Assembly (NCBI GenBank): GCA_001004665.1
Contig: LCRO01000001.1
Span: 483-64,482, forward strand
Direction of reading: 5' to 3'
Origin: Candidatus Adlerbacteria bacterium GW2011_GWA1_54_10
GTDB lineage: Bacteria > Patescibacteriota > Minisyncoccia > Phycocordibacterales > SBAW01
DNA: 64,000 nucleotides
Under the pieces are notes generated by a model, which was not told the DNA's origin, did no database searches, and worked only from the letters and a program-made list of their open reading frames with translations. Shown here piece by piece: positions 9,001-62,412 of the stretch (position 1 is its first letter; each line of letters begins with the position of its first letter). The position numbers and the translations under genes are program-made.

Positions 9001-10617
9001 CTAGCTTTTCTTCTCGCGGTACTGGAGCGCTTCCAATATGTGCGAATCGTTGACGTCCGGCGATCCGTCGAGGTCCGCGATGGTGCGCGCCACTTTTATT
9101 ACGCGATGGTAGGCGCGCGGCGATAGGGAAAAGCGTGCGCCCGCTTTCTCCAGCGTGGCGCGCACCGAGCCCGTGAGCGGCACCAAATCATCGAGCTCGC
9201 GCGGCGAGAGATCACTATTTAGCTTGAGCGAAGTCGAAGCCTTGGTTTTATCCGTCGCTTTGCTCTTTTTAAATCTTTCCTTCTGTGCTGCGCGTGCGTT
9301 TAGAACGCGTTCGCGCGCGTCGCGCGTCTCGCTCCCCTGCACCGCGCGTCTTCCGAGCTCCTGAAGCTCGACCGGTCCCATCACGCTCCAAAGATCTATG
9401 CGATCGGCTATCGGTCCCGAAAGCTTGCGGCGGTACTTCTCGAGCGCGAACGGGCTACATGTGCATTCGATCTCCGGATGACCATAGTTGCCGCACGGGC
9501 ACGGATTCATCGCCGCGACAAGCGTAAAGCGCGCGGGGAAAAGAGCGGTGCCTTTGGCCCGCGCGATCGCTATAACGCGGTCCTCAAGAGGCTGGCGCAG
9601 AGCCTCGATGACGCGCCGCTCGAATTCCGGGAACTCGTCGAGGAAAAGTACTCCCCTGTGCGCTAGCGTCGCCTCGCCGGGACGCGGATTTGCGCCGCCG
9701 CCTACAATGGAAACATATGAGGAAGTGTGATGCGGCGCGCGAAACGGCGGCATCGTCATAAGCTCGTCCATGAGTGCGCCGGCTACCGAGTGTATGCCGT
9801 TTACTTCGAGTGCCTCGTCAAAGGTAAGCGGCGGCAAAATCGAGGCAAGCGCCCGCGCGAGCATGGTCTTGCCCGTCCCCGGTGGACCCGAGAGCCCCAT
9901 GTTGTGGCCTCCTGCCGCGGCGATAACAGCCGCGCGCTTTGCCGAAGCTTGTCCGCGTATGTCCTCGAATGCGAATTGCGATTCGCCGAAATCCGCTTCC
10001 AGTTTGGTTTGCGGCATGGGCTGGATTTTAAGGTTCGACCTTGAGGAGCCTTTTTTTAAGGTCAAACCTTGCGGGGTTTGGGTCAGGCGCCTCTGTTTCG
10101 TATTTACGTGCCCGACGACATCGAGGAGCGACCCCGCCCCGTAAATGTCTATGCCGTGGATGAGCGCCGCCTCGCGCGCATTCTCCAGCGGGACAAAAAT
10201 TCCGCGCTTACCCCTTTTCTTCGCTTCGGCGACGAGCTGGAGTATCCCGCGCACGCCGCACAGCCGCCCGTCAAGGGACAGTTCGCCTATGAAAAGATAC
10301 GGCTCCGGGTCGAAGCGTATGTCGCCTGCCGCCAGCAGATATGAGAGCGCAATGGGCAGGTCGAACATCGGCCCCTCCTTTTTTAAGTCCGCAGGCGCGA
10401 GTGATATGACAGTTTTTTCGTTTTTTACTTTCGGGGACTTAAAACCGCTGTGCTTTATAGCCGATGCGACCCTGTCCCGCGCCTCTTCCACAGCCTTATC
10501 CGGCAGGCCGACAATATCGAATTTGTGCAGTTGGCCCCCGGATATATCCGTCTCGACCGTTACTATATGCGGCGATAAAAGCGAAGTCTGCGCCCCGTAC
10601 ACTCTCGCGTACTGCAT
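9001..10617 (-). CDS. comM: Mg-chelatase-like AAA+ ATPase ComM/YifB. Carries an in-frame palindromic insertion encoding ...LTLKKGSSRSNLKIQP... in the linker.
   Basis: N-terminal Lon-like domain (DIVGLPDKAVEEARDRV), Walker A GPPGTGKTM, sensor and C-terminal ChlI-like region. 538 aa. Confidence 0.85.
   Translation of the reverse strand: MQYARVYGAQTSLLSPHIVTVETDISGGQLHKFDIVGLPDKAVEEARDRVASAIKHSGFKSPKVKNEKTVISLAPADLKKEGPMFDLPIALSYLLAAGDIRFDPEPYLFIGELSLDGRLCGVRGILQLVAEAKKRGKRGIFVPLENAREAALIHGIDIYGAGSLLDVVGHVNTKQRRLTQTPQGLTLKKGSSRSNLKIQPMPQTKLEADFGESQFAFEDIRGQASAKRAAVIAAAGGHNMGLSGPPGTGKTMLARALASILPPLTFDEALEVNGIHSVAGALMDELMTMPPFRAPHHTSSYVSIVGGGANPRPGEATLAHRGVLFLDEFPEFERRVIEALRQPLEDRVIAIARAKGTALFPARFTLVAAMNPCPCGNYGHPEIECTCSPFALEKYRRKLSGPIADRIDLWSVMGPVELQELGRRAVQGSETRDARERVLNARAAQKERFKKSKATDKTKASTSLKLNSDLSPRELDDLVPLTGSVRATLEKAGARFSLSPRAYHRVIKVARTIADLDGSPDVNDSHILEALQYREKKS
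10027..10072. repeat. Palindromic mini-element copy 1 (tttaaggttcgaccttgaggagcc-ttttttt-aaggtcaaaccttg), in-frame inside comM.
   Basis: Inverted repeat aaggttcgacctt / aaggtcaaacctt. 22/23 nt identical to the copy in pnp. Encodes GSSRSNLK on the coding strand. Confidence 0.7.
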
Positions 10618-11106: not shown

Positions 11107-12267
11107 TTACTGCGCGAGCGGGACTATGGGGGAGCTCGAGAGGCGGGATATTACTTCGCGCAGGGTGTATTCGTTGGTCGTTATCAGTATCGTATTGCGG
11201 GACAGGAAGGTCCATAGCAACAATATATCGCCGCCCTCGTTCTGAATGACGCGCGCATCGCGGTTCTCTACGATTTTGTCGGTAAAACCGGACGACAGGA
11301 CCGCACTCGGAGACGTTGAAGAATTGGTTAAAGTCTTCTGTTCCGCCGAAGGAGTTGCCGCACGCAGAGGAGCCTTGCGATCGAAAAGCGGCGAAAGGTC
11401 GCCCTGCATCGTGCGTTCCCACGCGAGCATGCCCGAGAACCCTTGCTCGTATGAGTCGACGCGCAAAATGAGAAGCGGCTGATTCTCGTCAAAAATATGT
11501 ATGCCAAGCAGATATGCCGGCTCCAGAGTCCGCACTAATTCCCCAGGCAGATAGGGTGCGAGAATATCAAGAAGCCGCGGCGCGGTAAGAAGCTCGGGCA
11601 CGCCGTCCTCCTGCTCCGCGGGAGTGGCGGGATACAGCCGCGCCACAGATCCAAGGGAAAGTGACTCGCCCTTGCGCGCCGCGTCGAGTTTTTGAATCAA
11701 AGCCGCGCGCGTATCCTCTCGCGCTACCTCGATAATGGTCGTATCGTCCACAAAGATAAACGGTGCCTGCAGTTGCCCTGCTATGGGTACAGAAGTATCG
11801 CGCGTCAGAACGAGATACAGCGCCCCCGCCGCCGCGGCTAGCAACAGAATCCCGCCAATAGTGAGAGCGGTCCTTTTGAGAAGCGTGTTTTGTTCCGGAT
11901 GGGGTGCCGCTTCTTTTTGCGAAGTTCCGCCTTGCGCCCTCCTTTCGGCCTCCGCGGCCGCGACGGAAACTACCGATACGTTTTTCTGCTCGATGACCCT
12001 CTCGATGTCTCTTTGATAGGTTTGTATCGGCTTTACGCCGTCCTCCCGCGCGGGCGAAGCGGCAGAGCCCAAGGGCGACGCCTTGGGGAGCCCCGGTGTT
12101 AAGGCGTCGCCTTGAATGCCGTCCGCTGGCTTCAGCGTAGCTTTTTGCTCTTGTTCCAAAAGAGCCCCGGCATTTACCCGCTGGGCGCTATCGGGTGAAA
12201 CCGATTCCTTTTTTGGAAGCAGGATTTTATCAAGATCTATCTTGTCTCCGCCCGTTTGGTCCGCCAT
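11107..12267 (-). CDS. Hypothetical membrane-anchored protein.
   Basis: 386-aa ORF with a central TM segment LTIGGILLLAAAAGALYLVL and no recognisable domain. The 5' end overlaps the pnp 3' end, so the true start may be an internal Met. Confidence 0.45.
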   Translation of the reverse strand: MADQTGGDKIDLDKILLPKKESVSPDSAQRVNAGALLEQEQKATLKPADGIQGDALTPGLPKASPLGSAASPAREDGVKPIQTYQRDIERVIEQKNVSVVSVAAAEAERRAQGGTSQKEAAPHPEQNTLLKRTALTIGGILLLAAAAGALYLVLTRDTSVPIAGQLQAPFIFVDDTTIIEVAREDTRAALIQKLDAARKGESLSLGSVARLYPATPAEQEDGVPELLTAPRLLDILAPYLPGELVRTLEPAYLLGIHIFDENQPLLILRVDSYEQGFSGMLAWERTMQGDLSPLFDRKAPLRAATPSAEQKTLTNSSTSPSAVLSSGFTDKIVENRDARVIQNEGGDILLLWTFLSRNTILITTNEYTLREVISRLSSSPIVPLAQ

Positions 12268-14431
12268 TGTTTTCTGATGTCTTAAGCCCCTTGCGAAACG
12301 CGAATTCCGGATCCGCGGCTTTTATGGAGAAATTGATCCGGCCCTTCTCGTCTATCTCTTTTATCATAACCCGCACTTTGTCCCCAACAGAGACCGCTTC
12401 AGAGATCTTTCCGATGCGGAACGGCGCGACTTCGGAAACATGAACAAGCCCCTCGGCATCCTTTGACGGCCCTATCTTGACGAATGCGCCGAAATCCATA
12501 AGCCGGGTCACTTCGCCCTCGTAAACTTCGCCGGGCATATACTCCTTTACTATCTGTTCTATCATCTCGCGTGCTTTTTGCGCCGTGCCGCTTTTGCCCG
12601 TGATATAGACCGAGCCGTCATCCTCTATAGTGATGTCATCCACGCCTGCGGAGTCCCTTATTCCGTTTATAGTTTTGCCTCCGCCGCCGATGACAAGCCC
12701 GATCTGGTCGGGGCGCACGCGCATTGAGATTATCTCCGGAGCGCGCGGGCTTAACTTGGCGCGCGGGGCGGGTATCTCCTTTTCCATAAGGTCCAAAATC
12801 TGCATGCGCGCGGCGCGCGCGCCTTCAAGCGCTTCCGTCAATATCGGCACCGGCACGCCGCCGAGCTTGATGTCCATTTGAATGGCCGTTACCCCGCCGC
12901 GCGTGCCGGCGACCTTAAAGTCCATGTCGCCATGGCTGTCTTCCGGACCCTGAATGTCGGTAAGAATTTTATAAACATTCGCGCCTCTCATCATTAAACC
13001 CATCGCTATTCCCGCGACCGGCGCTTTTATGGGGACGCCGCCGTCCATAAGCGCGAGAGTCGAAGCGCAGGCCGAACCCATCGAGGTACTGCCGTTGCTG
13101 GCAAAGCATTCCGAAACGAGGCGGATTGTGTACGGGAACTGCTCCTGGCTCGGCAGGACAGGCTCAAGCGCCTTTTGTGCGAGCGCGCCGTGTCCTATGG
13201 CGCGGCGATTGATGCCGCCCATCCTCCCAGTCTCTCCACCCGAGTACGGAGGAAAGTTGTAATGATGCATAAAGCGCCGCTTCTCCTCCTGCGATTCCAT
13301 GGTATCGACGAGCAGGGAGTCGCCGGGTCCGCCCAAAGTAAGCGCGGTGAACACATGCGTGCCTCCGCGGTAGAAGATACCCGAGCCGTGGAGAACGGGA
13401 GAGATGCCGCCGGCTTTTGCAAAAAGCCGGCGTATCTCGCCCATGCCGCGCCCGTCGGCGCGCTTGCCCTCCTCTATCGCCCCGCGATGTATTTCTTCGT
13501 CTATTTTGTCCTCGAAGTATCTGTCCGCGATCTTAAGGTTCGACCTTGAAGAGCCCTGGTCTGAGGTCGAACCTTGGGTTTCAAGCGCCCCGGCCTTCTC
13601 CAGCCACTCCTTTTTAAGCGCGTAAATATTTTTCTTTCCCGCCTCGCCGCAGAAGACCGTCTCTCCAAGGCGAGGGGCGAACTCCGCCTTGAACAATTCG
13701 GTAAGTGCGGTGGACAATTCGGGCTCCGGCGCGGGGCGCTTTTGCTTCCCGACCTCTGCGATTATGTCCTCTTGCCATGCGAGCAACTTGGAGTGCTCGG
13801 CGACCGCGCTCTCGAACGCCGCCGCTATCGTTTTTTCGTCCGCCTCCTTCGCCGCGACCTCTACCATGTTTATTGTCGTGTCTTTTCCGCAGGCAAGTGT
13901 ATCGAGCGAGGCTCTGTCGCGCTGTTCGTAAGTCGGATTAATCACAAAGGCGTCGCCTTGAGAAATCAGTCCGATACGCACGGCCGCGACGGGCCCGTTC
14001 CACGGGATATCGGAGGTCGCAAGAGCAAGAGATGCCGCGTTTACCGCCACCTGCGCCGGGTCGTCCTCATCAAGCGAGAGCACGGTGATTATGACCTGTA
14101 CCTCGTTGCGGATGTGGCCTGGGAAAAGCGGGCGGATGGTGCGGTCGACGATGCGTCCGGAGAGTATGGCCTCTTCGCTGGGCCTCCCTTCGCGGCGCAT
14201 AAAGCGCGAACCGAGTATGGCGCCAGCCGCATAGAAGCGCTCCTCATAGTCTACGGTGAGCGGAAAGTAGTCGATGTCGTCGCGCGTCTTTTCGGACATG
14301 ACCGCGGTTGCGAGGACCGTGGTGTTTCCGTAGCGCAGTAGGCACGAGCCGCTTGCGTTCTCCGCCAGATCGGTAAACTCGGCGGTCATGGTTTTGCCGC
14401 CGATGTCTATGGAATAACTTTTGCTTTGCAT
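12230..14431 (-). CDS. pnp: Polyribonucleotide nucleotidyltransferase (PNPase). Carries an in-frame palindromic insertion encoding ...ETQGSTSDQGSSRSNLKIADRY...
   Basis: Two RNase PH domains, a KH domain and an S1 domain. N-terminus MQSKSYSIDIGGKTMTAEFTDLAENASGSCLLRYGNTTVLATAV. 733 aa. Classic rpsO-pnp neighbourhood. Confidence 0.92.
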   Translation of the reverse strand: MQSKSYSIDIGGKTMTAEFTDLAENASGSCLLRYGNTTVLATAVMSEKTRDDIDYFPLTVDYEERFYAAGAILGSRFMRREGRPSEEAILSGRIVDRTIRPLFPGHIRNEVQVIITVLSLDEDDPAQVAVNAASLALATSDIPWNGPVAAVRIGLISQGDAFVINPTYEQRDRASLDTLACGKDTTINMVEVAAKEADEKTIAAAFESAVAEHSKLLAWQEDIIAEVGKQKRPAPEPELSTALTELFKAEFAPRLGETVFCGEAGKKNIYALKKEWLEKAGALETQGSTSDQGSSRSNLKIADRYFEDKIDEEIHRGAIEEGKRADGRGMGEIRRLFAKAGGISPVLHGSGIFYRGGTHVFTALTLGGPGDSLLVDTMESQEEKRRFMHHYNFPPYSGGETGRMGGINRRAIGHGALAQKALEPVLPSQEQFPYTIRLVSECFASNGSTSMGSACASTLALMDGGVPIKAPVAGIAMGLMMRGANVYKILTDIQGPEDSHGDMDFKVAGTRGGVTAIQMDIKLGGVPVPILTEALEGARAARMQILDLMEKEIPAPRAKLSPRAPEIISMRVRPDQIGLVIGGGGKTINGIRDSAGVDDITIEDDGSVYITGKSGTAQKAREMIEQIVKEYMPGEVYEGEVTRLMDFGAFVKIGPSKDAEGLVHVSEVAPFRIGKISEAVSVGDKVRVMIKEIDEKGRINFSIKAADPEFAFRKGLKTSENNGGPNGRRQDRS
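13533..13577. repeat. Palindromic mini-element copy 2 (ttaaggttcgaccttgaagagccctggtctgaggtcgaaccttgg), in-frame inside pnp.
   Basis: Inverted repeat aaggttcgacctt / aggtcgaacctt. Encodes GSSRSNLK, identical to the comM peptide. Confidence 0.7.
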
Positions 14432-20023: not shown

Positions 20024-21163
20024 TTACCGCCCGTCGAGGGCGGAGATGAGTTGTGCAGTAAGGCCGGGGACGACCGTGGCGTTAAAAAGCGCAGCTTTTG
20101 CCGCAAGATCGCCGGAGAGAAGCCCTTTTATACCCCCGTGTCCCGCGCTTTTCAGGCTCTCATCAATGTGGGAGAGAGTTATGGCGCGCAGATCGCGCTC
20201 GCCAGTAGAACCTTCAAGTATTGCGGTCGAAATTATCCCGCCGAGCCTGCCGCTTTTAAGTGGTACTGCGGCTCCGCCCGAAGAACCGCTTTGGGAGAGT
20301 ATTGTGCCGCCTATGGAAAAAAGGTCAATGTCGTCCGCCGTGCCCTCGAAGGAATAAAGGCGGGTTAGATAGGCGAGCGCCGAGCTTGCATAAAGGTTGG
20401 TTGCTATCGTCTCGCCGGAAAGAAATCCGGCCGGATAGGCGGCAAGAAGTATTTGTTCGCCAAGCGTCCGCTCGCCTATGTCAGGCTCAAGAGCAGGGAA
20501 GTGGGAAGGCAGGGGATTTTTGGGGTTATACGGGCCGGTAATAAGCAAAAATGCATAATCCCTCTCGCCCGTGCCGAGGGCCCGCTGCTCTGCAATTTGG
20601 GGGGCGTTCTCCGCCACCCATGTAGGCGGGAGATAAAGCAGGGCGGCGCGGTATTGCGGCTCGGCTGGGCTCCCAGCGCGCACGATGCAGTCAATATTAC
20701 CGGGCATGCCGTAGTCGCGCAAAAGGAAATATTGCGCGACGTGTGCGGCTGTCAAAATTACGCCGCGGCTGTCCACGATAACGCCGCTGCCGGAAATGGG
20801 GTTGAGATAGCCGCCGCGCAGTGTGGTGCAGACAATATTTATCAGCGCCGCGCGCGTTTCGGTATTTAACTGTGAGAACGACTTCGCGGGCGCGTCGGCA
20901 GGCTCCAGCGGTTCCGGGATTTTCGCCGCGGGAGTGACAGAAGGCAACTCCTCGCCCGCTTGCGGAGAGGTGTTGCCTTGAGGGGCTGTAAGTTGCGGCT
21001 CCGGCTCTTGCATGGTTACTCGCGTTGTCGTCGCTATATCCTGCGTCGGCGCTGGAGCTTGGGTCACCACCTGCGGTGCCGCGCCAAAAAGCGTAGCAAT
21101 TGCAACAATCACTACGGCAAAAAACCTTGCCACGGCGTCAATTAATCCGTAGATAAATTCCAT
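20024..21163 (-). CDS. Secreted trypsin-like (S1 family) serine protease.
   Basis: N-terminal TM/signal VVIVAIATLFGAAPQ. His motif GVILTAAHVAQ. Ser motif GSSGGAAV. 379 aa. Confidence 0.7.
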   Translation of the reverse strand: MEFIYGLIDAVARFFAVVIVAIATLFGAAPQVVTQAPAPTQDIATTTRVTMQEPEPQLTAPQGNTSPQAGEELPSVTPAAKIPEPLEPADAPAKSFSQLNTETRAALINIVCTTLRGGYLNPISGSGVIVDSRGVILTAAHVAQYFLLRDYGMPGNIDCIVRAGSPAEPQYRAALLYLPPTWVAENAPQIAEQRALGTGERDYAFLLITGPYNPKNPLPSHFPALEPDIGERTLGEQILLAAYPAGFLSGETIATNLYASSALAYLTRLYSFEGTADDIDLFSIGGTILSQSGSSGGAAVPLKSGRLGGIISTAILEGSTGERDLRAITLSHIDESLKSAGHGGIKGLLSGDLAAKAALFNATVVPGLTAQLISALDGR

Positions 21164-29762: not shown

Positions 29763-30592
29763 TGAACAGATTCCCCAAGTCGCGGCGCATAGTGATAGCC
29801 AACTGGAAGATGTATTTGGAATCTCCCAAGGAGGCGGTTAAGTACGCGCAAAATTTGCGCAAAAATGCGAGAAATTTCAATGGAGTGGAAGCATGGATAG
29901 CGGCGCCGTTTACTTTGATACCAGTCGTGGCACAGGCGCTAAAAAATTCGAGCATAAAAATAGGTGCGCAGACGGCGTCGCCTTTCAATGCCGCGCAAAG
30001 TGGAGTGCATACAGGCGAGGTATCGGCGGCGATGCTCAAAAATGCCGGAGCCGGCTTTGTGCTTGTGGGACACTCGGAACGTCGGGCAATGGGCGAGTCG
30101 GAAGAAACCGTGCGTGAGCAGTCAGTGCGCGCGCTTTCCGCGGGGCTTACCGCAGTTCTCTGCGTAGGGGAGGCGGAGCGCAGTGCGGAGGGCACACACT
30201 TTGGATTTATAGAATCACAGTTGCGGTCGGCGTGCGAGGGACTGCAGGCGTATGCGGGGCGGGCGGCTGTCGCGTACGAGCCGATATGGGCCATTGGCAA
30301 GTCGGCAGAAGACGCCATGAGCCCGCCGGAAATTCAGGAAACGGCCATCTTCATAAAAAAAGTCCTTTCGGATGCGCTCGGCCGCAGCGCCGCCGCAAAA
30401 ATTCCGATACTGTACGGCGGTTCCGTAGACCGGGCTAACGCAAAAGCGATAATGGAGGAGGGCGGCGTTTCTGGATTTCTGGTCGGGCACGCTAGCGCTA
30501 AGCTGGATTCTTTTGTAGAAATACTGAAAGCCGTTCGACCGCTTCGACAGGCTCAGGGTAAACAAGCTCGCGGTAAGCATGCCGGAAATTAG
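29759..30592 (+). CDS. tpiA: Triosephosphate isomerase.
   Basis: IVIANWKMY, GAQTASPFNAAQSGVHTGEVSAAML, VGHSERR, GEAE motifs. 277 aa. Confidence 0.92.
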   Translation: MMNRFPKSRRIVIANWKMYLESPKEAVKYAQNLRKNARNFNGVEAWIAAPFTLIPVVAQALKNSSIKIGAQTASPFNAAQSGVHTGEVSAAMLKNAGAGFVLVGHSERRAMGESEETVREQSVRALSAGLTAVLCVGEAERSAEGTHFGFIESQLRSACEGLQAYAGRAAVAYEPIWAIGKSAEDAMSPPEIQETAIFIKKVLSDALGRSAAAKIPILYGGSVDRANAKAIMEEGGVSGFLVGHASAKLDSFVEILKAVRPLRQAQGKQARGKHAGN

Positions 30593-31715
30593 AGACATCA
30601 AAGACGCGGACATAGAGAACAAGCGCACATTGGTTCGCGTCGATTTTGACGTCCCTATCGCGGAGGGCCGCATCCTGGACGACGTGCGCATCAAAGCTGT
30701 CATTCCAACTCTTGAGCTGCTACACGAGAGCGGTGCCGCAAAAATTACTCTCATAGCGCACCTCGGCCGCCCCAATGGAAAAACAGTCGAGTCGCTACGT
30801 CTTGTACCCGTAGAAGCGCGCCTGCGCGAGCTGACGAAAGTGCCGTTTGAAATGCGGGAAAATCTGCGCTTCGACCCGCGCGAGGAGGCTAATGACGAAA
30901 ACTTTGCAAAAGAGTTGGCGGCGCTTGGCGATATATATGTAAACGAGGCCTTCGCCGACAGCCATCGTGCGCACGCCTCGATCGTGGGCGTACCGAAATT
31001 CCTTCCATCATATGCGGGCCTGCGCTTTATGAAGGAGGTCGATAAGTTGCGCGAGGCGCAGACACCGCCGGTAGGCTCCGTGGCCGTCATCGGCGGAGCA
31101 AAATTCGAGACTAAGGAACCGCTCTTGCGCAACCTGCTATCCGCGTACTCGCAGGTCCTGCTTGGCGGAGCGCTGGCAGACGACGTACTAAAGGCGCGCG
31201 GCATGCCAGTAGGCGAGTCGCTTGTAGCGGAAGTTGGCGTGCCGACGGAGCTTGCGGGTAGCGAACGCATTCTCGTACCGGCCGATGTGTATCTCGAGGA
31301 AGAGGACGACAAGGGGAGCGCCCGGGCGGCAATGACCGGCGATGTGCGCAAGGAGGAGCGGATAGTGGACATAGGCCCCTCCACGGCCGCGACATGGGCG
31401 CAAAAAATTTCCGAGGCTCCTTTCGTGCTTTGGAACGGTCCCATGGGCATTTACGAGGAAGGATATCGCGCTGGCACGGATGCTCTGGCTGTAGCGCTCA
31501 TCAAGGGCGGCGCAAGGGCAATAGTTGGAGGCGGCGACACTCTAGCCGCTTTGCGCTCCATACAAGATTCTACCTTAAAACAAGGTTCATCGAGGCCGGA
31601 CCTTGATGAAATCGAAAAAAGCGGCCGTATTTTCTTTTCAATGGGCGGCGGGGCAATGCTTAAATATCTCGCCGAGGGCACTCTTCCGGGGCTTGAGGCT
31701 TTGACAAGACGCTAG
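30579..31715 (+). CDS. pgk: Phosphoglycerate kinase. Carries an in-frame palindromic insertion encoding ...STLKQGSSRPDLDEIEKS... near the C-terminus.
   Basis: RVDFDVP, IAHLGRP, GGAKFETKEP, GGGDT and SMGGGA motifs. 378 aa. Overlaps tpiA by 14 nt in a different frame, so it is not a fusion. Confidence 0.92.
   Translation: MPEIRDIKDADIENKRTLVRVDFDVPIAEGRILDDVRIKAVIPTLELLHESGAAKITLIAHLGRPNGKTVESLRLVPVEARLRELTKVPFEMRENLRFDPREEANDENFAKELAALGDIYVNEAFADSHRAHASIVGVPKFLPSYAGLRFMKEVDKLREAQTPPVGSVAVIGGAKFETKEPLLRNLLSAYSQVLLGGALADDVLKARGMPVGESLVAEVGVPTELAGSERILVPADVYLEEEDDKGSARAAMTGDVRKEERIVDIGPSTAATWAQKISEAPFVLWNGPMGIYEEGYRAGTDALAVALIKGGARAIVGGGDTLAALRSIQDSTLKQGSSRPDLDEIEKSGRIFFSMGGGAMLKYLAEGTLPGLEALTRR
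31581..31608. repeat. Palindromic mini-element copy 3 (caaggttcatcgaggccggaccttgatg), in-frame inside pgk, in opposite genomic orientation to copies 1 and 2 but the same coding orientation.
   Basis: Core ggttcatcgaggccggacctt matches the reverse complement of the comM/pnp core ggctcYtcaaggtcgaacctt at 16/21 positions. Stem caaggttc/ggaccttg. Encodes QGSSRPDLD. Confidence 0.55.
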
Positions 31716-42177: not shown

Positions 42178-42846
42178 ATGCTCCCGCCACCCAAAAGCGC
42201 TCCGATATTGATTGTCGGCGCGCTTTTTTTATTTTGTGTCGCTGTTTGGAGTATTGCACTTGCACCCGCGTCCGATGCGGTCAAAAAAATCGACGCGCGC
42301 GTGTTCGGATCGCCGACCGACGAAAGCCGCACGCGCATGGACGTTCTGCTTGCGGAGCACATAGGCGGACCGGAGCTCGCAAAAAGGAGCAAAACATCCG
42401 GCTGTGCCGTGCGAGGCCCGTTTCCGGACCGCGCATGCACGCCCGGCTCGGTGTTCGAGAGCGCGACGACAAGCGTGATATGCGTTTCCGGCTACACCAA
42501 AAAGGTGCGCAGTGTCTCCGATAAATTGCGCAGGCAAATTTACTCCTCGTACGACATAGCGTATCCACAGCCCACAGGCTCTTACGAGCTCGACCATCTT
42601 ATCCCGCTCGCGCTCGGCGGCGACAACAGCACCGCGAACCTGTTCCCCGAGGCGGCGGAACCCGCGCCGGGGTTTAAAGAAAAAGACGTTGTGGAAGTCT
42701 ACTTGTACGAAGAGGTTTGCGCCGGCCGGCTCCCGCTTGCGGCGGCGCAGAGGCAAATAGCCGCGGACTGGCTCTCCGTTTACAAAGCGTTGGACCCCGC
42801 TGTCGCCGCGCGGATAAAACAAAAATACAGGAGCTGGTCGAATTAA
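42178..42846 (+). CDS. Membrane-anchored protein with a C-terminal HNH-nuclease-like motif; putative extracellular nuclease.
   Basis: N-terminal TM ILIVGALFLFCVAVWSIALA, Cys-containing middle region, and YELDHLIPLALGGDNSTANLFPE, which matches the HNH His-Asn-His core. Confidence 0.55.
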   Translation: MLPPPKSAPILIVGALFLFCVAVWSIALAPASDAVKKIDARVFGSPTDESRTRMDVLLAEHIGGPELAKRSKTSGCAVRGPFPDRACTPGSVFESATTSVICVSGYTKKVRSVSDKLRRQIYSSYDIAYPQPTGSYELDHLIPLALGGDNSTANLFPEAAEPAPGFKEKDVVEVYLYEEVCAGRLPLAAAQRQIAADWLSVYKALDPAVAARIKQKYRSWSN

Positions 42847-43085
42847 ATAACGCCAGCCTCTTTGAGCGCCTTATAAGCGCCTTTTTTTTGGAGGGTGCGC
42901 ATGCCCTTGGTAGAAAGCGTCAGCGCCACCGTGCGACCGAGCTCCGGCACGAAGATGCGTTTTTTCTGCAGGTTGGCCTTCATCCGGTATTTGCCGGAAG
43001 GATTGAATTTGGTTGCGCGAATGCGGTTGCTGTATTTGCCCGCAACCTTCGAGCTTTTTTTGGTGATGGGGCAGATTTTGGCCAT
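42843..43085 (-). CDS. rpmB: 50S ribosomal protein L28.
   Basis: 80 aa. MAKICPITKKSSKVAGKYSNRIRATKFNP... L28 signature. Confidence 0.88.
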   Translation of the reverse strand: MAKICPITKKSSKVAGKYSNRIRATKFNPSGKYRMKANLQKKRIFVPELGRTVALTLSTKGMRTLQKKGAYKALKEAGVI

Positions 43086-43165
43086 GTTTTTTAAAAAGAC
43101 GACACCTTGCGGCTTGCCGAAAGGTGTCGCCTTGACGGCTCGAATGGTATCATGTTTCCAATCGT

Positions 43166-43804
43166 ATGCAAATAGATATTGTCTTTGGGATAGTCATACT
43201 CATTTTTTCCGTGATACTACACGAAGTAGCGCACGGCTATATGGCGAATTATCTCGGCGACCCAACTGCGCGGCTTATGGGGCGCCTGACCCTTAACCCG
43301 TTTCCGCACATAGACCTGCTCGGCTCAATAATTTTGCCTGCCGTGCTTGTAATCGCCGGCTCGCCGCTCCTTATCGGCTATGCCAAGCCCGTACCGTATA
43401 ACCCGTACAATCTTCGCGGGCGCTTCGGCGAGGCACTAGTGGCATTTGCCGGCCCGGGGACGAACATCCTGCTTGCGGTAATATTCGGCCTGCTCATACG
43501 AGTCTTCGGGGCGGGGCTCGACTCGGGGCTCCTTGATGCGCTTGCGACCATTGTTTACATAAACATGCTGCTCGCGCTCTTTAACCTGATACCCATACCT
43601 CCGCTCGACGGCTCCAAGATACTGTCCGGCATACTGCCGGAGGCGCTCGGGCGCGCGTATGACAGCTTCCGCTTCAACTTCGAGCAGTTGGGGGTCCTGT
43701 CCGGCACGCTCCTTATATTGATAGTATTCTACTTCCTTGCGCCGTACTTTTTTGTCTCCATTTTACTACCGATATTCAGATTTTTGACAGGAGGAGGATT
43801 TTAG
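43166..43804 (+). CDS. Site-2-protease-class zinc metalloprotease (peptidase M50).
   Basis: HEVAHGYMA HExxH in a TM helix and LFNLIPIPPLDGSKIL (NxxPxxxLDG) motif. 212 aa. Confidence 0.85.
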   Translation: MQIDIVFGIVILIFSVILHEVAHGYMANYLGDPTARLMGRLTLNPFPHIDLLGSIILPAVLVIAGSPLLIGYAKPVPYNPYNLRGRFGEALVAFAGPGTNILLAVIFGLLIRVFGAGLDSGLLDALATIVYINMLLALFNLIPIPPLDGSKILSGILPEALGRAYDSFRFNFEQLGVLSGTLLILIVFYFLAPYFFVSILLPIFRFLTGGGF

Positions 43805-54108: not shown

Positions 54109-54309
54109 ATGAAAAAACTCGACCTTACAAAGCACACGCAGGAAGACCTGAATAAGCTCGTCGCGCAAAAACGCGAGGAATTGCGGGCCTTGCGTTTTGC
54201 CGTAGCCGGCAGTAAAAATCGCAATGTCAAACTGGCGCGCGTCTTGCGCAAGGAAATAGCGCGGGCGCTGACAAGGTTAAGCCTTAACGCCAGGACTCCC
54301 AAGGTTTAA
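54109..54309 (+). CDS. rpmC: 50S ribosomal protein L29.
   Basis: MKKLDLTKHTQEDLNKLVAQKREELRALRF. Start at the internal Met of ORF 54085..54309. Confidence 0.85.
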   Translation: MKKLDLTKHTQEDLNKLVAQKREELRALRFAVAGSKNRNVKLARVLRKEIARALTRLSLNARTPKV

Positions 54310-54321
54310 CCTTTAACTCAC

Positions 54322-55774: not shown

Positions 55775-55948
55775 CGTTATATATTGGCCTACAAGGATAT
55801 TTCCTTGGTCGGTCTCAAAACTTCATAATTGTTCCTGAGACGTTAAGTCTTGCCTATCGAGACGTAACCACTGGGGTACCATCGGAGGAAACTAATTCCA
55901 TATTTTGGGCTCACTCTCTGTTGATAGGCAGATGCCTTTCCTTAATTC

Positions 55949-57901
55949 GTGGTGGTACAATTTAGGTGTAGATTTCATACAACTATGCCTCCCCAACAAC
56001 CCAACCCTGTCCCTACTACTCCGGCTAGTCCACCTCAGTCTTTCACACCGTCCACTCCTCCCAAACATCATCATTCGTATTGGTTATTAATTGCCGCTGG
56101 TGTAGCAATTGCTATTTTGACGTATCTTGGAATAAGCCAAGTTACTTCCGCCCCGGTGTCTATCTTTGCTCTGTTTACTAATCCAGAAATGGGTGGATAT
56201 GCACTATTCCTGCTTCCTGCTGTAGTGGTTAGTCTTATATTGATTTTAATTAGCTGGCGATGGGGACGGAATATATACAGAAAGGAAAATAGACCGGTGC
56301 AGGGATTTTTCTTCGGCACGTCGCTGTATCTACTCCTCGTCTTTTTAGCGCTTGGAATTACAAATGTACTACTTGTTGGTTACGCACATACAGTGGCGGA
56401 TGATGTTTCCTTTGCAGTAGGATTGATATTCTCTATCTTTTTTATTACTTCCATACAGATTTTATACGTCGGTCTGCTTATCTGCATGGGGCTTCTTATT
56501 TACTCAACCCGCTCATCTCCAGAAGAACCATCTCAGGCACCTTCTCCATTAGCCATACAGTTTCGTTATGCGGTTATGGGGGTCATGATTATTTTTGCGC
56601 TCTATATATTTGGGCTTGCCGCACCGATTGCCACTGCTACCCACCAGCAATGGCTTTGTAATTTGGTATACAGCAGTCGAGCAAAAGCAGACTGTCTTCT
56701 TAACACTTCTGCTATCGCGGCCTCTGAGAATGCCGCTCAAAATTCGGGTAACTCAGGGACTTTTACTATTGTTAAGACTGACTACAAACAAATTAAAGAC
56801 CTCCACGAGGTAGGAGGAAAGTTGGCCTACGCATTTGAAAATAATGATGGCACTTCGGGGGTGGCATATGATGGCCAGGTGGTGAGTGGTGCTTATCAAA
56901 AAGTGGGTATTCTGCCGATTGCAGAGGTTGGAGGAAAACTCGCGTATGAGGCATACAAAGGCGATAAAGAAATTATCGTTTGGGACGGACAGGAGTTTGG
57001 GACATCTTATAACCGGGCAAGCCAACCAACTGATATAGGCGGCAAGCTCGCTTTTGTAGCGGAAATAGGAAAAAAATATTTTGTGGTGTACGACGGAAAA
57101 GAATATGGTAGAGAGGCCGACGGGGCGGGGAGACCCACGTCAATACAGGGGAAGCTTGCCTACGCTGCCGATACGAATATTAATGGCGGGCAATATGTAG
57201 TATTTGACGGAAAACAAGTGGGTGGCCGCTATGGCAGAGTCGAGTGGATAAAAGATGAGGATGGTCACTTGGTGTTTGAAGGGGTAAATGGAAATGGAAC
57301 CTTGCTCGTGGTCGACGGAAAAGAGTATGGCTTTGGATATGGGCAAATACAAAACCATGTTTTGATTGATGGGAAACTCGCCTTTTCTGCCCAAAAGGAT
57401 GGCAAGACAGTCATTGTCTATGAGGGCACAGAAATCGGCACAGGCTCCTCATATGAGGCTGGACCCTATAACATCAAAGGCCAACTTGCGTATATTGCTG
57501 CAAATCCCGACGGAACCTCCCAGCTTATGGTAGGAGGACAAGCGGTTGGGCCGGTTATGTCAGGAAGTGTCCGCAATGTGGATGTTTCAAAGGGCGGGAG
57601 AGTGGTTGTACAGATTGATGACGGTAGCAAGCAATGCAGAGGCGTAGTGCACGGTCCAATATATCTTGATGGGGAAAAAGTATATGAAGGCTGTAGCAGC
57701 AACCCATTCGGCTTTTTTGGAGAGAAATTATTGTTCTGGACACAAGAGGGCGGAGATAAGGCGTTGTGGTACGACGGTAAAAAAATTGGCCAAGGATTTT
57801 ACGGATATAACTACTTCGCAGTGGTGGATGGGAAGTTGGCTATCGCCGCCTTTGCTTCGGCAGGGCAAGGCGTTCAGTACTCCTTGCTTCTTGAACAGTA
57901 G
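55949..57901 (+). CDS. Polytopic membrane protein with a Pro-rich N-terminus, about 6 TM helices and a C-terminal array of about 40-aa tandem repeats (GGKLAY...DGKEYG..Y), resembling WG/KWG-type beta-propeller repeats.
   Basis: 650-aa ORF; a start at MPPQQPNPV (55985) is also possible. TM helices e.g. YWLLIAAGVAIAILTYLGI, GYALFLLPAVVVSLILILISW, LYLLLVFLALGITNVLLVGY. At least 8 repeats of the type IGGKLAFVAEIGKKYFVVYDGKEYGREADGAGRPTSIQGKLAYAAD. Confidence 0.6.
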   Translation: MVVQFRCRFHTTMPPQQPNPVPTTPASPPQSFTPSTPPKHHHSYWLLIAAGVAIAILTYLGISQVTSAPVSIFALFTNPEMGGYALFLLPAVVVSLILILISWRWGRNIYRKENRPVQGFFFGTSLYLLLVFLALGITNVLLVGYAHTVADDVSFAVGLIFSIFFITSIQILYVGLLICMGLLIYSTRSSPEEPSQAPSPLAIQFRYAVMGVMIIFALYIFGLAAPIATATHQQWLCNLVYSSRAKADCLLNTSAIAASENAAQNSGNSGTFTIVKTDYKQIKDLHEVGGKLAYAFENNDGTSGVAYDGQVVSGAYQKVGILPIAEVGGKLAYEAYKGDKEIIVWDGQEFGTSYNRASQPTDIGGKLAFVAEIGKKYFVVYDGKEYGREADGAGRPTSIQGKLAYAADTNINGGQYVVFDGKQVGGRYGRVEWIKDEDGHLVFEGVNGNGTLLVVDGKEYGFGYGQIQNHVLIDGKLAFSAQKDGKTVIVYEGTEIGTGSSYEAGPYNIKGQLAYIAANPDGTSQLMVGGQAVGPVMSGSVRNVDVSKGGRVVVQIDDGSKQCRGVVHGPIYLDGEKVYEGCSSNPFGFFGEKLLFWTQEGGDKALWYDGKKIGQGFYGYNYFAVVDGKLAIAAFASAGQGVQYSLLLEQ

Positions 57902-58219
57902 ATTATCCCCTAGGACGATTCCCTAGGCGTCTACAATCGTCTCAGAACGTTGGGAAGGGGTCAGTGTATGGTTTCCATTATCCCTGCATAGTTTTACTTC
58001 TAGGAGAGGAGGTATTACCATATCGGTACAACTGAATAAAAAGGGCCTAACCCCAATAGCTTAACTGTTGGGCAAGGCCGAAAATCATGAGGCATAGAAA
58101 ACCCGTCATTCAGGGCATGCCTCATGTTATAGGGGGAAACTCCTATAAGGCCGCAAGGCCTCCTGGTGGCGGGCTTTGTGTTTTCTCACCCACCAGAATT
58201 ACTGGAGTAAGAAACAAAA

Positions 58220-58822
58220 ATGGATGCGGTAAAAAAGTGGGTATTAGTTCCGGTTGCATATCTGGTCGGATTCTTAGTTTTATTAATCCTATTGGCCGTG
58301 CTTGGGGTATGGTTGGGTTTTCTTTGGGGACTACTTATAGTAAGTGCGGCTACCCTTGCTTGCGGAGTTTTTTTAATACCGAAGTTGCACCCAAATAAAG
58401 AGAGGAAGAACCTGATGGGCGGAGTGCTGACGCTGCTAGTGTCTATATGGGCAATAGTTGGTGTTGCAAACCTGGGAGCATGGATTATGACTCCTTCGGC
58501 TTCTACATCTGTAGTCCAATCACAGGAAGTTACTCCAGAAGCGAAAGCTGCCGCACAGGAGCAATTAAATAGAGTAATGTCTCTTGCTAAAAAAGCTAGA
58601 CTCATTACCACATATGAGTTTTCAGATAGTGCAGCAGTAGTTTATGCCGACACGGCTTGGTACATACAAACAGTGCAGTTCAAGAAAGATTTTCTTGCAA
58701 AAATAGGTACTCTCAAAAAACAAATCACAGGCTATCAGCATTTCGAGGTACGCGACGCCTACTCCAACGAGAAAGTTGCGGAGATTACATCTTTCGGTGG
58801 TTCGCTTGAAGTTTACAAATAG
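58220..58822 (+). CDS. Membrane protein (3-4 N-terminal TM helices plus a C-terminal soluble domain), hypothetical.
   Basis: 200-aa ORF. WVLVPVAYLVGFLVLLILLAVLGVWLGFLWGLLIVSAATLACGVFLI then GGVLTLLVSIWAIVGVANLGAWIM. No family recognised. Confidence 0.5.
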   Translation: MDAVKKWVLVPVAYLVGFLVLLILLAVLGVWLGFLWGLLIVSAATLACGVFLIPKLHPNKERKNLMGGVLTLLVSIWAIVGVANLGAWIMTPSASTSVVQSQEVTPEAKAAAQEQLNRVMSLAKKARLITTYEFSDSAAVVYADTAWYIQTVQFKKDFLAKIGTLKKQITGYQHFEVRDAYSNEKVAEITSFGGSLEVYK

Positions 58823-59243
58823 TATTCTTTACCCTGACTTACAGAATGTCTCTCTAGACGTCTAGAGACGTCTCAGAACGTTGGAAAGTAAGGGGTTTAT
58901 AGGTTTTATTGGCTGTGGATTACTCCATCGCTAGGACATAGGAACAGGACGGTCGTAAATACCCTCTAAAAAGACTTTGATTGAAGCCATTTTTATATGG
59001 TCATTTTTGACGTATTTCCATGTATATCTGTCCCTAGTTGGAAGTACATGAATGAAAACACCAGATAACTTTTTACAAACAGGTTTGACGAAAGCTAGAG
59101 TGTCAAAGTGTCCTCGCAGAAAGCAGAAATTAAAAATGAATCCCTGGTCGAGCTTGAATCTGAAAGAGCGTGGGAGCAACTTTTCTGCCTTTTACTTGGC
59201 ACGGATAAAACCGAAAAAACAAAGCCATTAAAAAGTAGTCTGA

Positions 59244-59441
59244 ATGACGATGTCAAACTTACACAAAATTGATCCTTGCCCCGGTTGCTGGAACCGACCC
59301 CATGATGACCTAGCTCTAAATTCAGTCTCCAGGTACGGACACGGTTATATATGCGGCGACTGCGGTCAAAAAGAGGCTATTGAGGGTGACTTCATTAGCA
59401 AACAAAATGAGTTCGTCAGAAACTTACTAGCTGGTAGATAA
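59244..59441 (+). CDS. Small zinc-ribbon protein (CxxC...YGHG...CGxC), paralog 1.
   Basis: 65 aa. CPGCWNRPHDDLALNSVSRYGHGYICGDCGQKE. The motif layout is shared with the adjacent ORF. Confidence 0.5.
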   Translation: MTMSNLHKIDPCPGCWNRPHDDLALNSVSRYGHGYICGDCGQKEAIEGDFISKQNEFVRNLLAGR

Positions 59442-59447
59442 AATCCT

Positions 59448-59705
59448 ATGCCAAAAATTACACCTACCGCTGTCCTAGAATTCCTTAAAGAAAATCCTGA
59501 CTTCTGGCGACAAAATCGCAACCGCTGTGCCGGATGTGATAGGTTGCTTGCAAAAGACAGAGTGAAGTGGATGTTGCGTAGTAGATATGGTCACGGTGAA
59601 CTCTGTGGCGCTTGCCGTTACAGAGATGCCCATTATGACTTCATCGGCATACGACGCAGTAAACCCGCTGGCGATAACGTCAATCCTTATGATGAAAAAG
59701 GATAG
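59448..59705 (+). CDS. Small zinc-ribbon protein (CxxC...YGHG...CGxC), paralog 2.
   Basis: 85 aa. CAGCDRLLAKDRVKWMLRSRYGHGELCGACRYRD. Tandem with paralog 1, separated by 6 nt. Confidence 0.5.
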   Translation: MPKITPTAVLEFLKENPDFWRQNRNRCAGCDRLLAKDRVKWMLRSRYGHGELCGACRYRDAHYDFIGIRRSKPAGDNVNPYDEKG

Positions 59706-60114
59706 GGCGTCGGGACGCAGATTCCCTGGCTTTCCCCATGAATGGGACGAAGAGTACGGGTTTACTCAATACCCCAATATGCTTACCGAATTTTGGGCCG
59801 ACTTGTCAGGGTCGGGCCAAAAAGTTCTGGACTTTATCATTCGGCAAACAATAGGCTGGGAAAAAGATGAGGACACAATAGCGCTGTCACAGTTCAGGAA
59901 TGGAATCCGGGGTAAGTGGAACAACCGGGGGACAGGGTTGTCGGGCTCCCAGGTCCGCAGAGCAATCAAGGAGCTTGAAAACGGTGGCTACATCACTGTT
60001 GAACGGAATCAGAATCGACCCTCCACATTTCGTCTGGTGTTTGACGATGAGTTAAAGGAGGGGGAGATAGAGGAGACAAAAGGGGAGGGGGAAGAAGAGC
60101 AACGACTCTTTTGA
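59689..60114 (+). CDS. Winged-helix DNA-binding protein, possibly a phage replisome-organiser / DnaD-N-like or regulator, with an acidic C-terminal tail.
   Basis: Internal Met of ORF 59587..60114, overlapping the end of paralog 2 by 17 nt. FTQYPNMLTEFWADLSGSGQKVLDFIIRQTIGWEKDEDTIALSQFRNGIRGKW...SGSQVRRAIKELENGGYITVER resembles the replisome-organiser N-terminal winged helix. Assignment is tentative. Confidence 0.4.
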   Translation: MMKKDRASGRRFPGFPHEWDEEYGFTQYPNMLTEFWADLSGSGQKVLDFIIRQTIGWEKDEDTIALSQFRNGIRGKWNNRGTGLSGSQVRRAIKELENGGYITVERNQNRPSTFRLVFDDELKEGEIEETKGEGEEEQRLF

Positions 60115-60441
60115 GTCAACTGTGTTCATTAAGGCCACAAACGTATTCATCTTGGCACTAGGGCTAAACAATATGAACGGCCATTTGTAGTCAAAATGGT
60201 ACCCACAATATATAAACAATAAATAATAATCAGAATATAATATACAGTTTTCCATTTTTCCAAAAATGGATAGCTAGTCCTTCTGAAAGGATTTCTGGAA
60301 GAGGAAAAAAGGGGAAATGAACGACTTTTTTCCGACTCCAGAAATCAGAAAAAGAAACTATTCCGGCCTATCCAAAATGACCATAGCCTTACCAACTATT
60401 TACAACTAACCTAAAGTATGGTAAAATATTAACAGCTAGTC

Positions 60442-60615
60442 ATGAACGACCCTGAAGCTTTACGAGATTACCTTATAGCAGACGAAATTCAGCGCATTCA
60501 AGCGCTGTCCCGAGAAGACCTTGTAAGAGAGCTGATTTCTCTGAGGTCGGAAAAGCTAGAAGGTGTCTCACTCGCAGACCTGCTGAAAGTTTGTCAGTCA
60601 AAAAATGGAACATGA
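60442..60615 (+). CDS. Small acidic helical protein (57 aa) immediately upstream of, and overlapping, the serine recombinase start; candidate recombination directionality factor or regulator.
   Basis: ATG-initiated ORF MNDPEALRDYLIADEIQRIQALSREDLVRELISLRSEKLEGVSLADLLKVCQSKNGT. Below the ORF-track size cut-off. No homology assignable. Confidence 0.25.
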   Translation: MNDPEALRDYLIADEIQRIQALSREDLVRELISLRSEKLEGVSLADLLKVCQSKNGT

Positions 60616-62335: not shown

Positions 62336-62412
62336 CTACATAAAATGGCCTGTCAGGCCTTATCGCTTTTCCCCAGGGGAAGCACTACAATGTGGGTGCC
62401 TAAAGGCTCCTA

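Follow-up and report, generated by a model that had tools for sequence, protein, structure and literature searches.

A mostly intragenic palindromic repeat of Candidatus Adlerbacteria and other CPR bacteria that resembles REPINs and Rickettsia palindromic elements

We analysed a stretch of 64,000 nt (hereafter the window) from Candidatus Adlerbacteria bacterium GW2011_GWA1_54_10 (contig LCRO01000001.1, positions 483 to 64,482, forward strand) and found in it a repeated 42-nt element, built of two inverted arms around a short spacer, that lies within comM, pnp and pgk and at the 3' end of rpmC. The element forms a hairpin, is inserted in its host genes, recurs and decays at the same hot spots in related genomes, and is distributed across the Candidate Phyla Radiation (CPR, Patescibacteria). 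It is probably of the REP/REPIN kind of short DNA palindromes (REP, repetitive extragenic palindrome; REPIN, inverted doublet of REPs), intragenic and apparently translated, and behaves like the Rickettsia palindromic elements (RPEs). The repeat family is apparently undescribed: a literature search, made in a searchable library that is incomplete, retrieved no paper with the 13-nt arm sequences or with such CPR repeats.

The unit of 42 nt (14 codons) consists of a C at position -1, an arm of 13 nt, a spacer of 15 nt and the inverted arm of 13 nt. In coding orientation, with the comM, pnp and pgk copies aligned over 41 nt, the first arm reads AAGGTTCGACCTT and the inverted second arm AAGGTCGAACCTT; a single arm is itself a mini-palindrome (5+3+5). 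The unit boundary is sharp. Among 25 copies compared, C occupies position -1 in 18, and the flanks past that position showed neither conservation nor target-site duplication. The comM element (10030..10071, minus strand; 42 nt) lies in ORF (open reading frame) 9001-10617 and reads QGLTLKKGSSRSNL at ComM residues ~184-197. The pnp element (13535..13576, minus strand; 42 nt; ORF 12230-14431) reads QGSTSDQGSSRSNL at residues ~285-298, and a decayed element in pgk (31563..31604, plus strand; ORF 30579-31715) reads QDSTLKQGSSRPDL. The original prediction, made from the sequence of the window, had placed copies in these three genes with the comM and pnp copies 22/23 identical over their quoted core, and both statements were confirmed, the copies lying at the coordinates it gave; its unit size of 21-45 bp has to be replaced by 42 nt, with nothing conserved beyond the C at -1. 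The translations also bear out that the reading frame is preserved and that the three proteins receive like peptides (QGLTLKKGSSRSNLK in ComM, QGSTSDQGSSRSNLK in PNPase and QDSTLKQGSSRPDLD in PGK). As predicted from the open frames, translation of the element would yield a hydrophilic peptide of 14 residues, QGSTLxQGSxRSNL.

The earlier count of three copies was too low. A two-arm search of the window added a clear fourth copy, which spans 54273-54313 at rpmC's 3' end (element 54272..54313, plus strand; gene 54109-54309), with the variant arms AAGGTTAAGCCTT and AAGGTTTAACCTT. A relaxed doublet search (AAGGT-N3-ACCTT-like arms, at most 3 mismatches per arm, at least 10/13 complementary positions) gave 6 hits, compared with 0.15 in dinucleotide shuffles, and added three hairpins with variant arms (AAGG-N5-CCTT). 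One of them, 12072..12113 (minus strand), lies in a hypothetical gene (11107-12267) whose protein gave no domain in a Pfam search; it has the arms AAGGCGACGCCTT and AAGGCGTCGCCCT, a 16-nt spacer (AACACCGGGGCTCCCC) that resembles the spacer of the main family, and the reading QGDALTPGLPKASPL. The second, 20941..20979 (minus strand), has AAGG..CCTT-type arms and a 13-nt spacer, and reads QGNTSPQAGEELPS in the N-terminal linker of a trypsin-like peptidase (gene 20024-21163); the case for homology with the main family is weaker here, being suggested by arm ends and architecture only. The third, 43096..43133, is intergenic, between the divergent rpmB (42843-43085, minus strand) and an M50-like protease gene (43166-43804, plus strand), with arms AAGACGACACCTT and AAGGTGTCGCCTT and a 12-nt spacer similar to that of the 20941 hairpin. 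Several arm classes stand side by side in the source genome, and 6 of the 7 window copies are intragenic.

The repeats occur far above chance. The core motif GGYTCNTCRAGGYCGRACCTT has 3 exact matches in the window (0.04 expected from shuffles), and the arm AAGGTTCGACCTT with up to 2 mismatches has 7 matches against 1.4 expected, a number reached by 0 of 100 shuffles. The window has 4-7 copies per 64 kb, and strict-pattern hits number just 1-3 per species genome. All five internal intragenic copies share one phase, with a reading that begins CAA GGN. The asymmetric spacer has the orientation of its host gene in every window copy and in about 4/5 of copies elsewhere, a bias that could reflect either peptide tolerance or strand-specific insertion; because gene strand and GC skew both flip at ~28 kb, the two readings are inseparable in the window. 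A scan with Rfam at gathering thresholds returned no known RNA family at the element sites.

We compared the host proteins, identified by Pfam as ComM (ChlI and Mg_chelatase AAA domains), PNPase and PGK, with their orthologs. In ComM, the site separates the ChlI/Lon-like domain from the AAA domain. Across 120 ComM orthologs (73-78% identity) the inter-domain linker varies from 45 to 67 residues; the shortest orthologs have plain K/E-rich linkers without the element, and 25 of the 120 carry a two-arm peptide signature there, intact or decayed (e.g. GLTLAQGSSRSDL and GQTLARGSLRSDL). In ortholog P0206 the element is inverted (QGSTLKSPELRSNL). The pnp site is a variable segment separating the two RNase PH halves, and the aligned segment is 70 residues long here vs. 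61-62 in typical orthologs; the shortest PNPase orthologs have a plain short linker. No trace of the element was seen in the nearest PNPase relative, P0245 (79% identity). Other PNPase orthologs carry intact (P0306, P0293), decayed (P0253, P0337) or inverted (P0359) copies. A second, unrelated family of inserted peptides (LQ..KGRDE[HR]DPNS..) was found in the same PNPase linker of other CPR genomes, aligned to window pnp residues ~283-300 (P0256, P0271, P0272, P0280, P0309, P0317 and P0323), which suggests another repeat family using the same permissive site.

The pgk site is a loop within the C-terminal domain of PGK. The original prediction had assigned all three insertions to inter-domain linkers, and this holds for ComM and PNPase but not for PGK. 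The inserted block comprises ~17 aa and probably extends to about 31613. In 20 Adlerbacteria-like PGK orthologs (~360 aa) the 17 residues are absent between GGGD and GGGA; the nearest relative, P0002 (74% identity), has a shorter related remnant, LSPELRSNLEKS, and solved bacterial PGK structures do not have the block. Of the three proteins PGK was modelled, and in the AlphaFold2 model (mean pLDDT 80) the insert is a low-confidence coil, with a mean pLDDT of 54 at residues 331-340 and no secondary structure at 331-341.

The rpmC copy is one base out of register with the other copies. It supplies the L29 tail TRLSLNARTPKV and the TAA stop codon, which lies inside the second arm, and the Pfam L29 domain stops at residue 57 of 66. 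The same site with the same compensated arm variant was found in loci L013 and L016. Judged by these alignments, the elements were inserted in particular lineages, at loops that tolerate them. In relatives, the same sites hold copies that are intact, decayed or inverted, which marks them as permissive hot spots where elements are gained, decay and are lost.

Hairpins with a stem of 12-13 bp around a 15-nt loop are formed by the comM, pnp and rpmC copies (RNA dG -15 to -19.5 kcal/mol, z -2.7 to -4.1); the comM copy has a 13-bp stem (dG -16.7, z -4.1), and the pnp copy gives dG -19.5 and z -4.0. In the decayed pgk copy the long hairpin fold is lost. At 31584-31613 the spacer end of this copy (TTCATC) pairs with the downstream flank (GATGAA) around the second arm, and a 9-bp hairpin of single-arm type is newly formed. 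In a set of 21 copies, 97.7% of the stem cells are paired, and double (compensatory) changes were seen at three pairs, effectively two events (the rpmC lineage and locus L011).

Conservation of orthologous copies was examined for ComM, UvrA and RecG. Their arms are identical at 25-26 of 26 bases and third codon positions within the element at 11-14 of 14. In the flanks, amino acids are 64-85% identical, third positions agree at 28-48%, and codons at identical residues match in just 27-55%; flanking synonymous sites are saturated between the orthologous copies. Such conserved arms in saturated flanks imply that the copies arose long after the species split, by repeated insertion at one site, have been homogenised, or are under nucleotide-level selection.

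To follow the repeat beyond the window, 596 Gb of sequence was scanned with a degenerate 41-nt pattern of 18 fixed and 4 two-fold positions. There were 19 hits, 17 of them in metagenome-assembled genomes of CPR/Patescibacteria, against ~1 chance match estimated from the information content of the pattern. The arm centre and the spacer had been left free in the pattern and are still conserved (AAGGTTCGACCTT-AnnnCARGGCTCYYC-AAGGTCGAACCTT). Host genes were comM (same linker, three genomes), uvrA (same site, two genomes), recG (same site, two genomes), rpmC (identical site and variant arms in three genomes), SMC (L015, inverted), GatA, a UvrD-like helicase and the 3' end of rplC. Proteins identical to those of the window are found on the Rifle groundwater contigs LCRP01000001.1 and MEWY01000002.1 (Candidatus Adlerbacteria). 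A metagenome scan for both exact arms 5-35 nt apart showed that at least 120 loci share the arms. Among the matches listed, spacers measured 5-33 nt with modes at 10, 11, 14, 15, 30 and 33, which define distinct subfamilies, and at least 79 of 125 copies lay in ORFs of at least 150 aa, in all three phases. Some of the copies supply a gene's stop codon, the palindrome often extends past the unit into the flanks, and lone arms occur as tips of longer hairpins. The motif is thus enriched well beyond the three sites first noticed, in the window, in CPR genomes and in metagenomes, and it forms a large family that is confined, as far as sampled, to CPR/Patescibacteria. At L140 829-883 we noted the array arm, G, arm, spacer, inverted arm, reading QGSTLDQGSSRSNLQGRTL, as if part of the element had been duplicated in tandem.

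A link to transposase genes was found in related CPR contigs. Locus L027 contains an ORF of 219 aa with the HUH motif PNHFHLL and a conserved YIHLNP, and with arms on both sides. The protein matches Pfam Y1_Tnp (PF01797) at 43.8 bits (cutoff 23), and its best NCBIfam match is REP_Tyr_transpos (NF047646) at 47.2 bits, under the curated cutoff of 80; a PDB sequence search with the protein of this RAYT-like gene (RAYT, REP-associated tyrosine transposase) gave no match. The loci had been picked by the repeat alone, and a tblastn search with the protein detected homologs in 11 of them. An AGG-N5-CCT hairpin whose stem is extended lies no more than 200 nt from eight of ten non-redundant RAYT-like genes, usually 10-60 nt from the start or stop; for intervals of gene size placed at random in these loci the background is 5.9% (P about 6e-9). 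The genes in L027, L122/L109, L058, L043 and L089 adjoin arms and those in L090, L060 and L028 adjoin variant hairpins, the arm cores varying by gene (TTCGA, ACTAT, CCTCG, CGACG). The Y1_Tnp gene of L155 has a hairpin upstream, one inside and a doublet downstream. A RAYT-like gene of Candidatus Kaiserbacteria, found in one fixed chromosomal context on four contigs, has on both sides CACGAGGCGACGCCTCGTG, the arm core of the 12072 copy of the window; the core of that copy, AGGCGACGCCT, equals the core of the hairpins around the Kaiserbacteria gene. The association of RAYT-like genes with the hairpins is thus shown for CPR relatives. Several RAYT-like genes themselves carry in-frame arm or doublet inserts in a variable loop (L027 446-458, L122 649-661 and L058 4044-4079), with the peptides KLQGRTLEK, SQGSTLRS and PKVRPSEFRRSNLG.

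REPINs are doublets of REPs in inverted orientation that form hairpins and are associated with single-copy RAYT genes (PMC3116915, PMC5581495), and REP/REPIN-RAYT systems are found in, e.g., Pseudomonas fluorescens and E. coli (PMC3116915, PMC2817692, PMC5581495). The CPR element shares with them short imperfect palindromes repeated far above chance, several classes per genome, the occurrence of singlets, the inverted doublet whose spacer permits a hairpin, and Y1 HUH genes flanked by cognate hairpins, the last in related CPR contigs only. We propose that the two REP-like arms and the spacer would fold into a hairpin as single-stranded DNA or RNA, and that a RAYT-like Y1 (HUH) enzyme may recognise this hairpin on single-stranded DNA and copy or move the element. 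Such recognition has been established for IS200/IS605 TnpA and E. coli TnpA-REP (PMC3479197, PMC6006769). As CPR genomes have nearly no intergenic space, the surviving insertions would be those of 3n length that are free of stop codons and fall in loops, linkers or gene ends, where they may be translated as a 14-residue loop or a new C-terminal tail. An element spread in this way would be selfish.

Several observations weigh against a REP/REPIN-type origin. REPs are extragenic by definition, and one of their ends usually has the tetranucleotide GTAG or CGTC (PMC3733652), whereas the CPR element lies mostly within protein-coding genes, is apparently translated, and has no conserved GTAG or CGTC but only the C at -1. 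Its arms are 13 nt and its units 31-59 nt, compared with doublets of ~70-110 nt (PMC3116915), and its hosts belong to the CPR/Patescibacteria. The enzyme scored under the curated RAYT threshold and could instead be an IS200-like TnpA. In the source genome, no RAYT-like or Y1_Tnp gene was found in ~72 kb (the window and ~8 kb beyond it, which held no further element copy), and locus L155 has, within 20 kb, hairpins only around its RAYT gene, so that dispersal is not universal. Presence/absence polymorphism between near-identical strains was not found, and mobility of the element is inferred. Orthologous copies are also far better conserved than their flanking synonymous sites, which is not expected of a purely selfish, decaying insert unless it is young, re-inserted site-specifically or homogenised. 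REP/REPIN-RAYT is nevertheless the closest mechanistic kin found.

The conservation of the arms leads to a different reading, which we regard as possible but rather unlikely, that the hairpin is a functional nucleic-acid signal selected within coding sequence, the peptide being a tolerated by-product. The signal could be bound or processed by a conserved protein of CPR bacteria, which might be a domesticated RAYT, or it could act as an RNA hairpin on the decay or translation of the mRNA. Besides the near-complete retention of arm bases and third positions in ComM, UvrA and RecG, it would account for the rare spacer variant (14/15) common to the window comM copy and L022, for compensatory arm changes kept at rpmC across three genomes, and for arms that are near-invariant over CPR lineages of 43-58% GC; published accounts also describe RAYT-REPIN systems as vertically inherited and long-lived (PMC5581495; 10.1101/2021.07.10.451892). 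However, many orthologs have visibly decayed copies or none, the pgk copy no longer has its hairpin, the sites are wherever inserts are tolerated with an inconsistent position relative to gene starts and ends, and the arm conservation in the scanned sets is partly due to the search patterns. A related proposal, to which we also give a low probability, is that CPR bacteria keep a vertically inherited hairpin-RAYT system in which hairpins in essential coding sequence are dual-coding and serve the host itself, for instance in the processing of single-stranded DNA or RNA or in replication or repair signalling, so that they stay conserved at orthologous positions from one CPR family to another although their flanks are saturated.

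Non-autonomous derivatives of IS200/IS605-type or other insertion sequences (IS), similar to MITEs (miniature transposable elements with inverted repeats) or PATEs (palindrome-associated transposable elements), or relics spread by another route, would give 13-nt inverted arms resembling terminal inverted repeats and multiple arm classes in one genome, and the generic Y1_Tnp match and sub-cutoff RAYT score fit such an origin too. We consider it quite improbable, as there is neither target-site duplication nor a conserved flank past -1, the Kaiserbacteria gene in its fixed context on four contigs is like single-copy RAYTs, and 1.1 Mb of loci contained no full-length IS bounded by the arms. The element resembles IS200/IS605 and E. 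coli TnpA-REP systems (PMC3479197, PMC6006769) in its Y1 HUH enzyme, in DNA hairpin recognition (predicted here) and in the lack of target duplication, but differs in that no IS-sized element with CPR arms was seen; it has the inverted arms of a cut-and-paste MITE without flank duplication or, in those loci, a parent IS with the same ends. The viral contigs searched contained no copy, which argues against IS derivatives and led us to reject phage as the vector. That the likeness stems from chance, or from codon bias together with a functional peptide conserved as a linker or tag (QGSTLxQGSSRSNL), is very improbable. Frame and orientation are indeed the same in most intragenic copies with a 15-nt spacer, including all five internal window copies, but the rpmC copy is in another frame and gives a stop codon, the 43096 copy is intergenic, copies in L015, P0206 and P0359 are inverted, other subfamilies occupy all three phases, and shuffles never reached the observed counts. 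The comM, pnp and pgk copies, moreover, use the same codons at the six-fold degenerate Ser, Arg and Leu, so that their likeness is at the DNA level, and orthologous copies retain identical codons, also for six-fold degenerate residues, within saturated flanks. An explanation by shared peptide and codon bias, raised with the original prediction, is contradicted by these results.

Among known elements, the in-frame presence of a palindromic repeat in unrelated housekeeping genes of a reduced genome, encoding a conserved peptide where the fold tolerates it and leaving orthologous and decayed copies, is shared with the RPEs. RPEs are ~100-150 bp long and specific to Rickettsia (PMC10969869), and the CPR unit of 42 nt is set apart from them by size and host phylum and by arms tied to Y1 transposase genes. 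None of the refutations named with the original prediction came true, and its RPE-like interpretation is supported, with the refinement that the CPR element is an analogue of RPEs and no member of that family. We know of no transposase or mobilising enzyme tied to RPEs. In fungal mitochondria, mobile GC clusters and double-hairpin elements are 30-50 nt palindromes that lie in frame in genes of compact genomes, and each arm of the double-hairpin elements can form its own small hairpin, as in the CPR element. Those clusters belong to an organellar system, have no sequence relation to the CPR element and, to our knowledge, have no known transposase. DNA uptake sequences (DUS/USS) were considered because many hosts are repair genes. 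Such sequences consist of one short motif that recurs about once per kb, for the most part singly, whereas the 64 kb of the window contain 8 clear arms, every one in an inverted pair, and this candidate was rejected.

A link to the replication origin was also rejected, as the density of DnaA boxes near arms is not raised (0.34 vs. 0.28 per kb) and the window has no box cluster. Single arms GYAAGGTCSAACCTTGY were nevertheless seen directly between perfect DnaA boxes TTATCCACA at L076 2554-2611, L121 1354-1400, L131 ~1450-1475 and L090 2673-2690, in an arrangement that is near-identical in two unrelated contigs. In the window, the genes switch from the minus to the plus strand at ~28200, where the cumulative GC skew turns too, in the intergenic gap between nusA and a pilB-like gene; with no cluster of DnaA boxes there, the turn point is not callable as an origin. 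The ribosomal-protein operon is interrupted between rplE and rpsH by a low-GC island of ~8.5 kb (0.44-0.48 vs. 0.55; window 55900-64000), which runs ~2 kb past the window (L149/L150 5381-13440). The island encodes two hypothetical proteins, a Phage_rep_O-like protein, a large serine recombinase (60605-62335) and an OLD-family AAA/TOPRIM nuclease, and contains a full-length match to the Rfam LOOT RNA (RF03000) at 58044-58161 on the plus strand (79 bits vs. gathering 46).

RPEs are the textbook example of in-frame palindromic insertion. The CPR family unites a REPIN-like hairpin doublet with a link to Y1 transposases and a mainly intragenic life in ultra-compact genomes, and it offers a testable mechanism by which selfish palindromes may colonise coding sequence. 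With orthologous copies so unusually well conserved in nucleotide sequence, one may ask whether the hairpins have gained a function. The element is a source of lineage-specific loops in ComM, UvrA, RecG, PNPase, PGK, GatA, SMC and L29, for which reason caution is needed in CPR protein annotation and phylogenomics, and its copies provide a natural map of sites that tolerate insertion.

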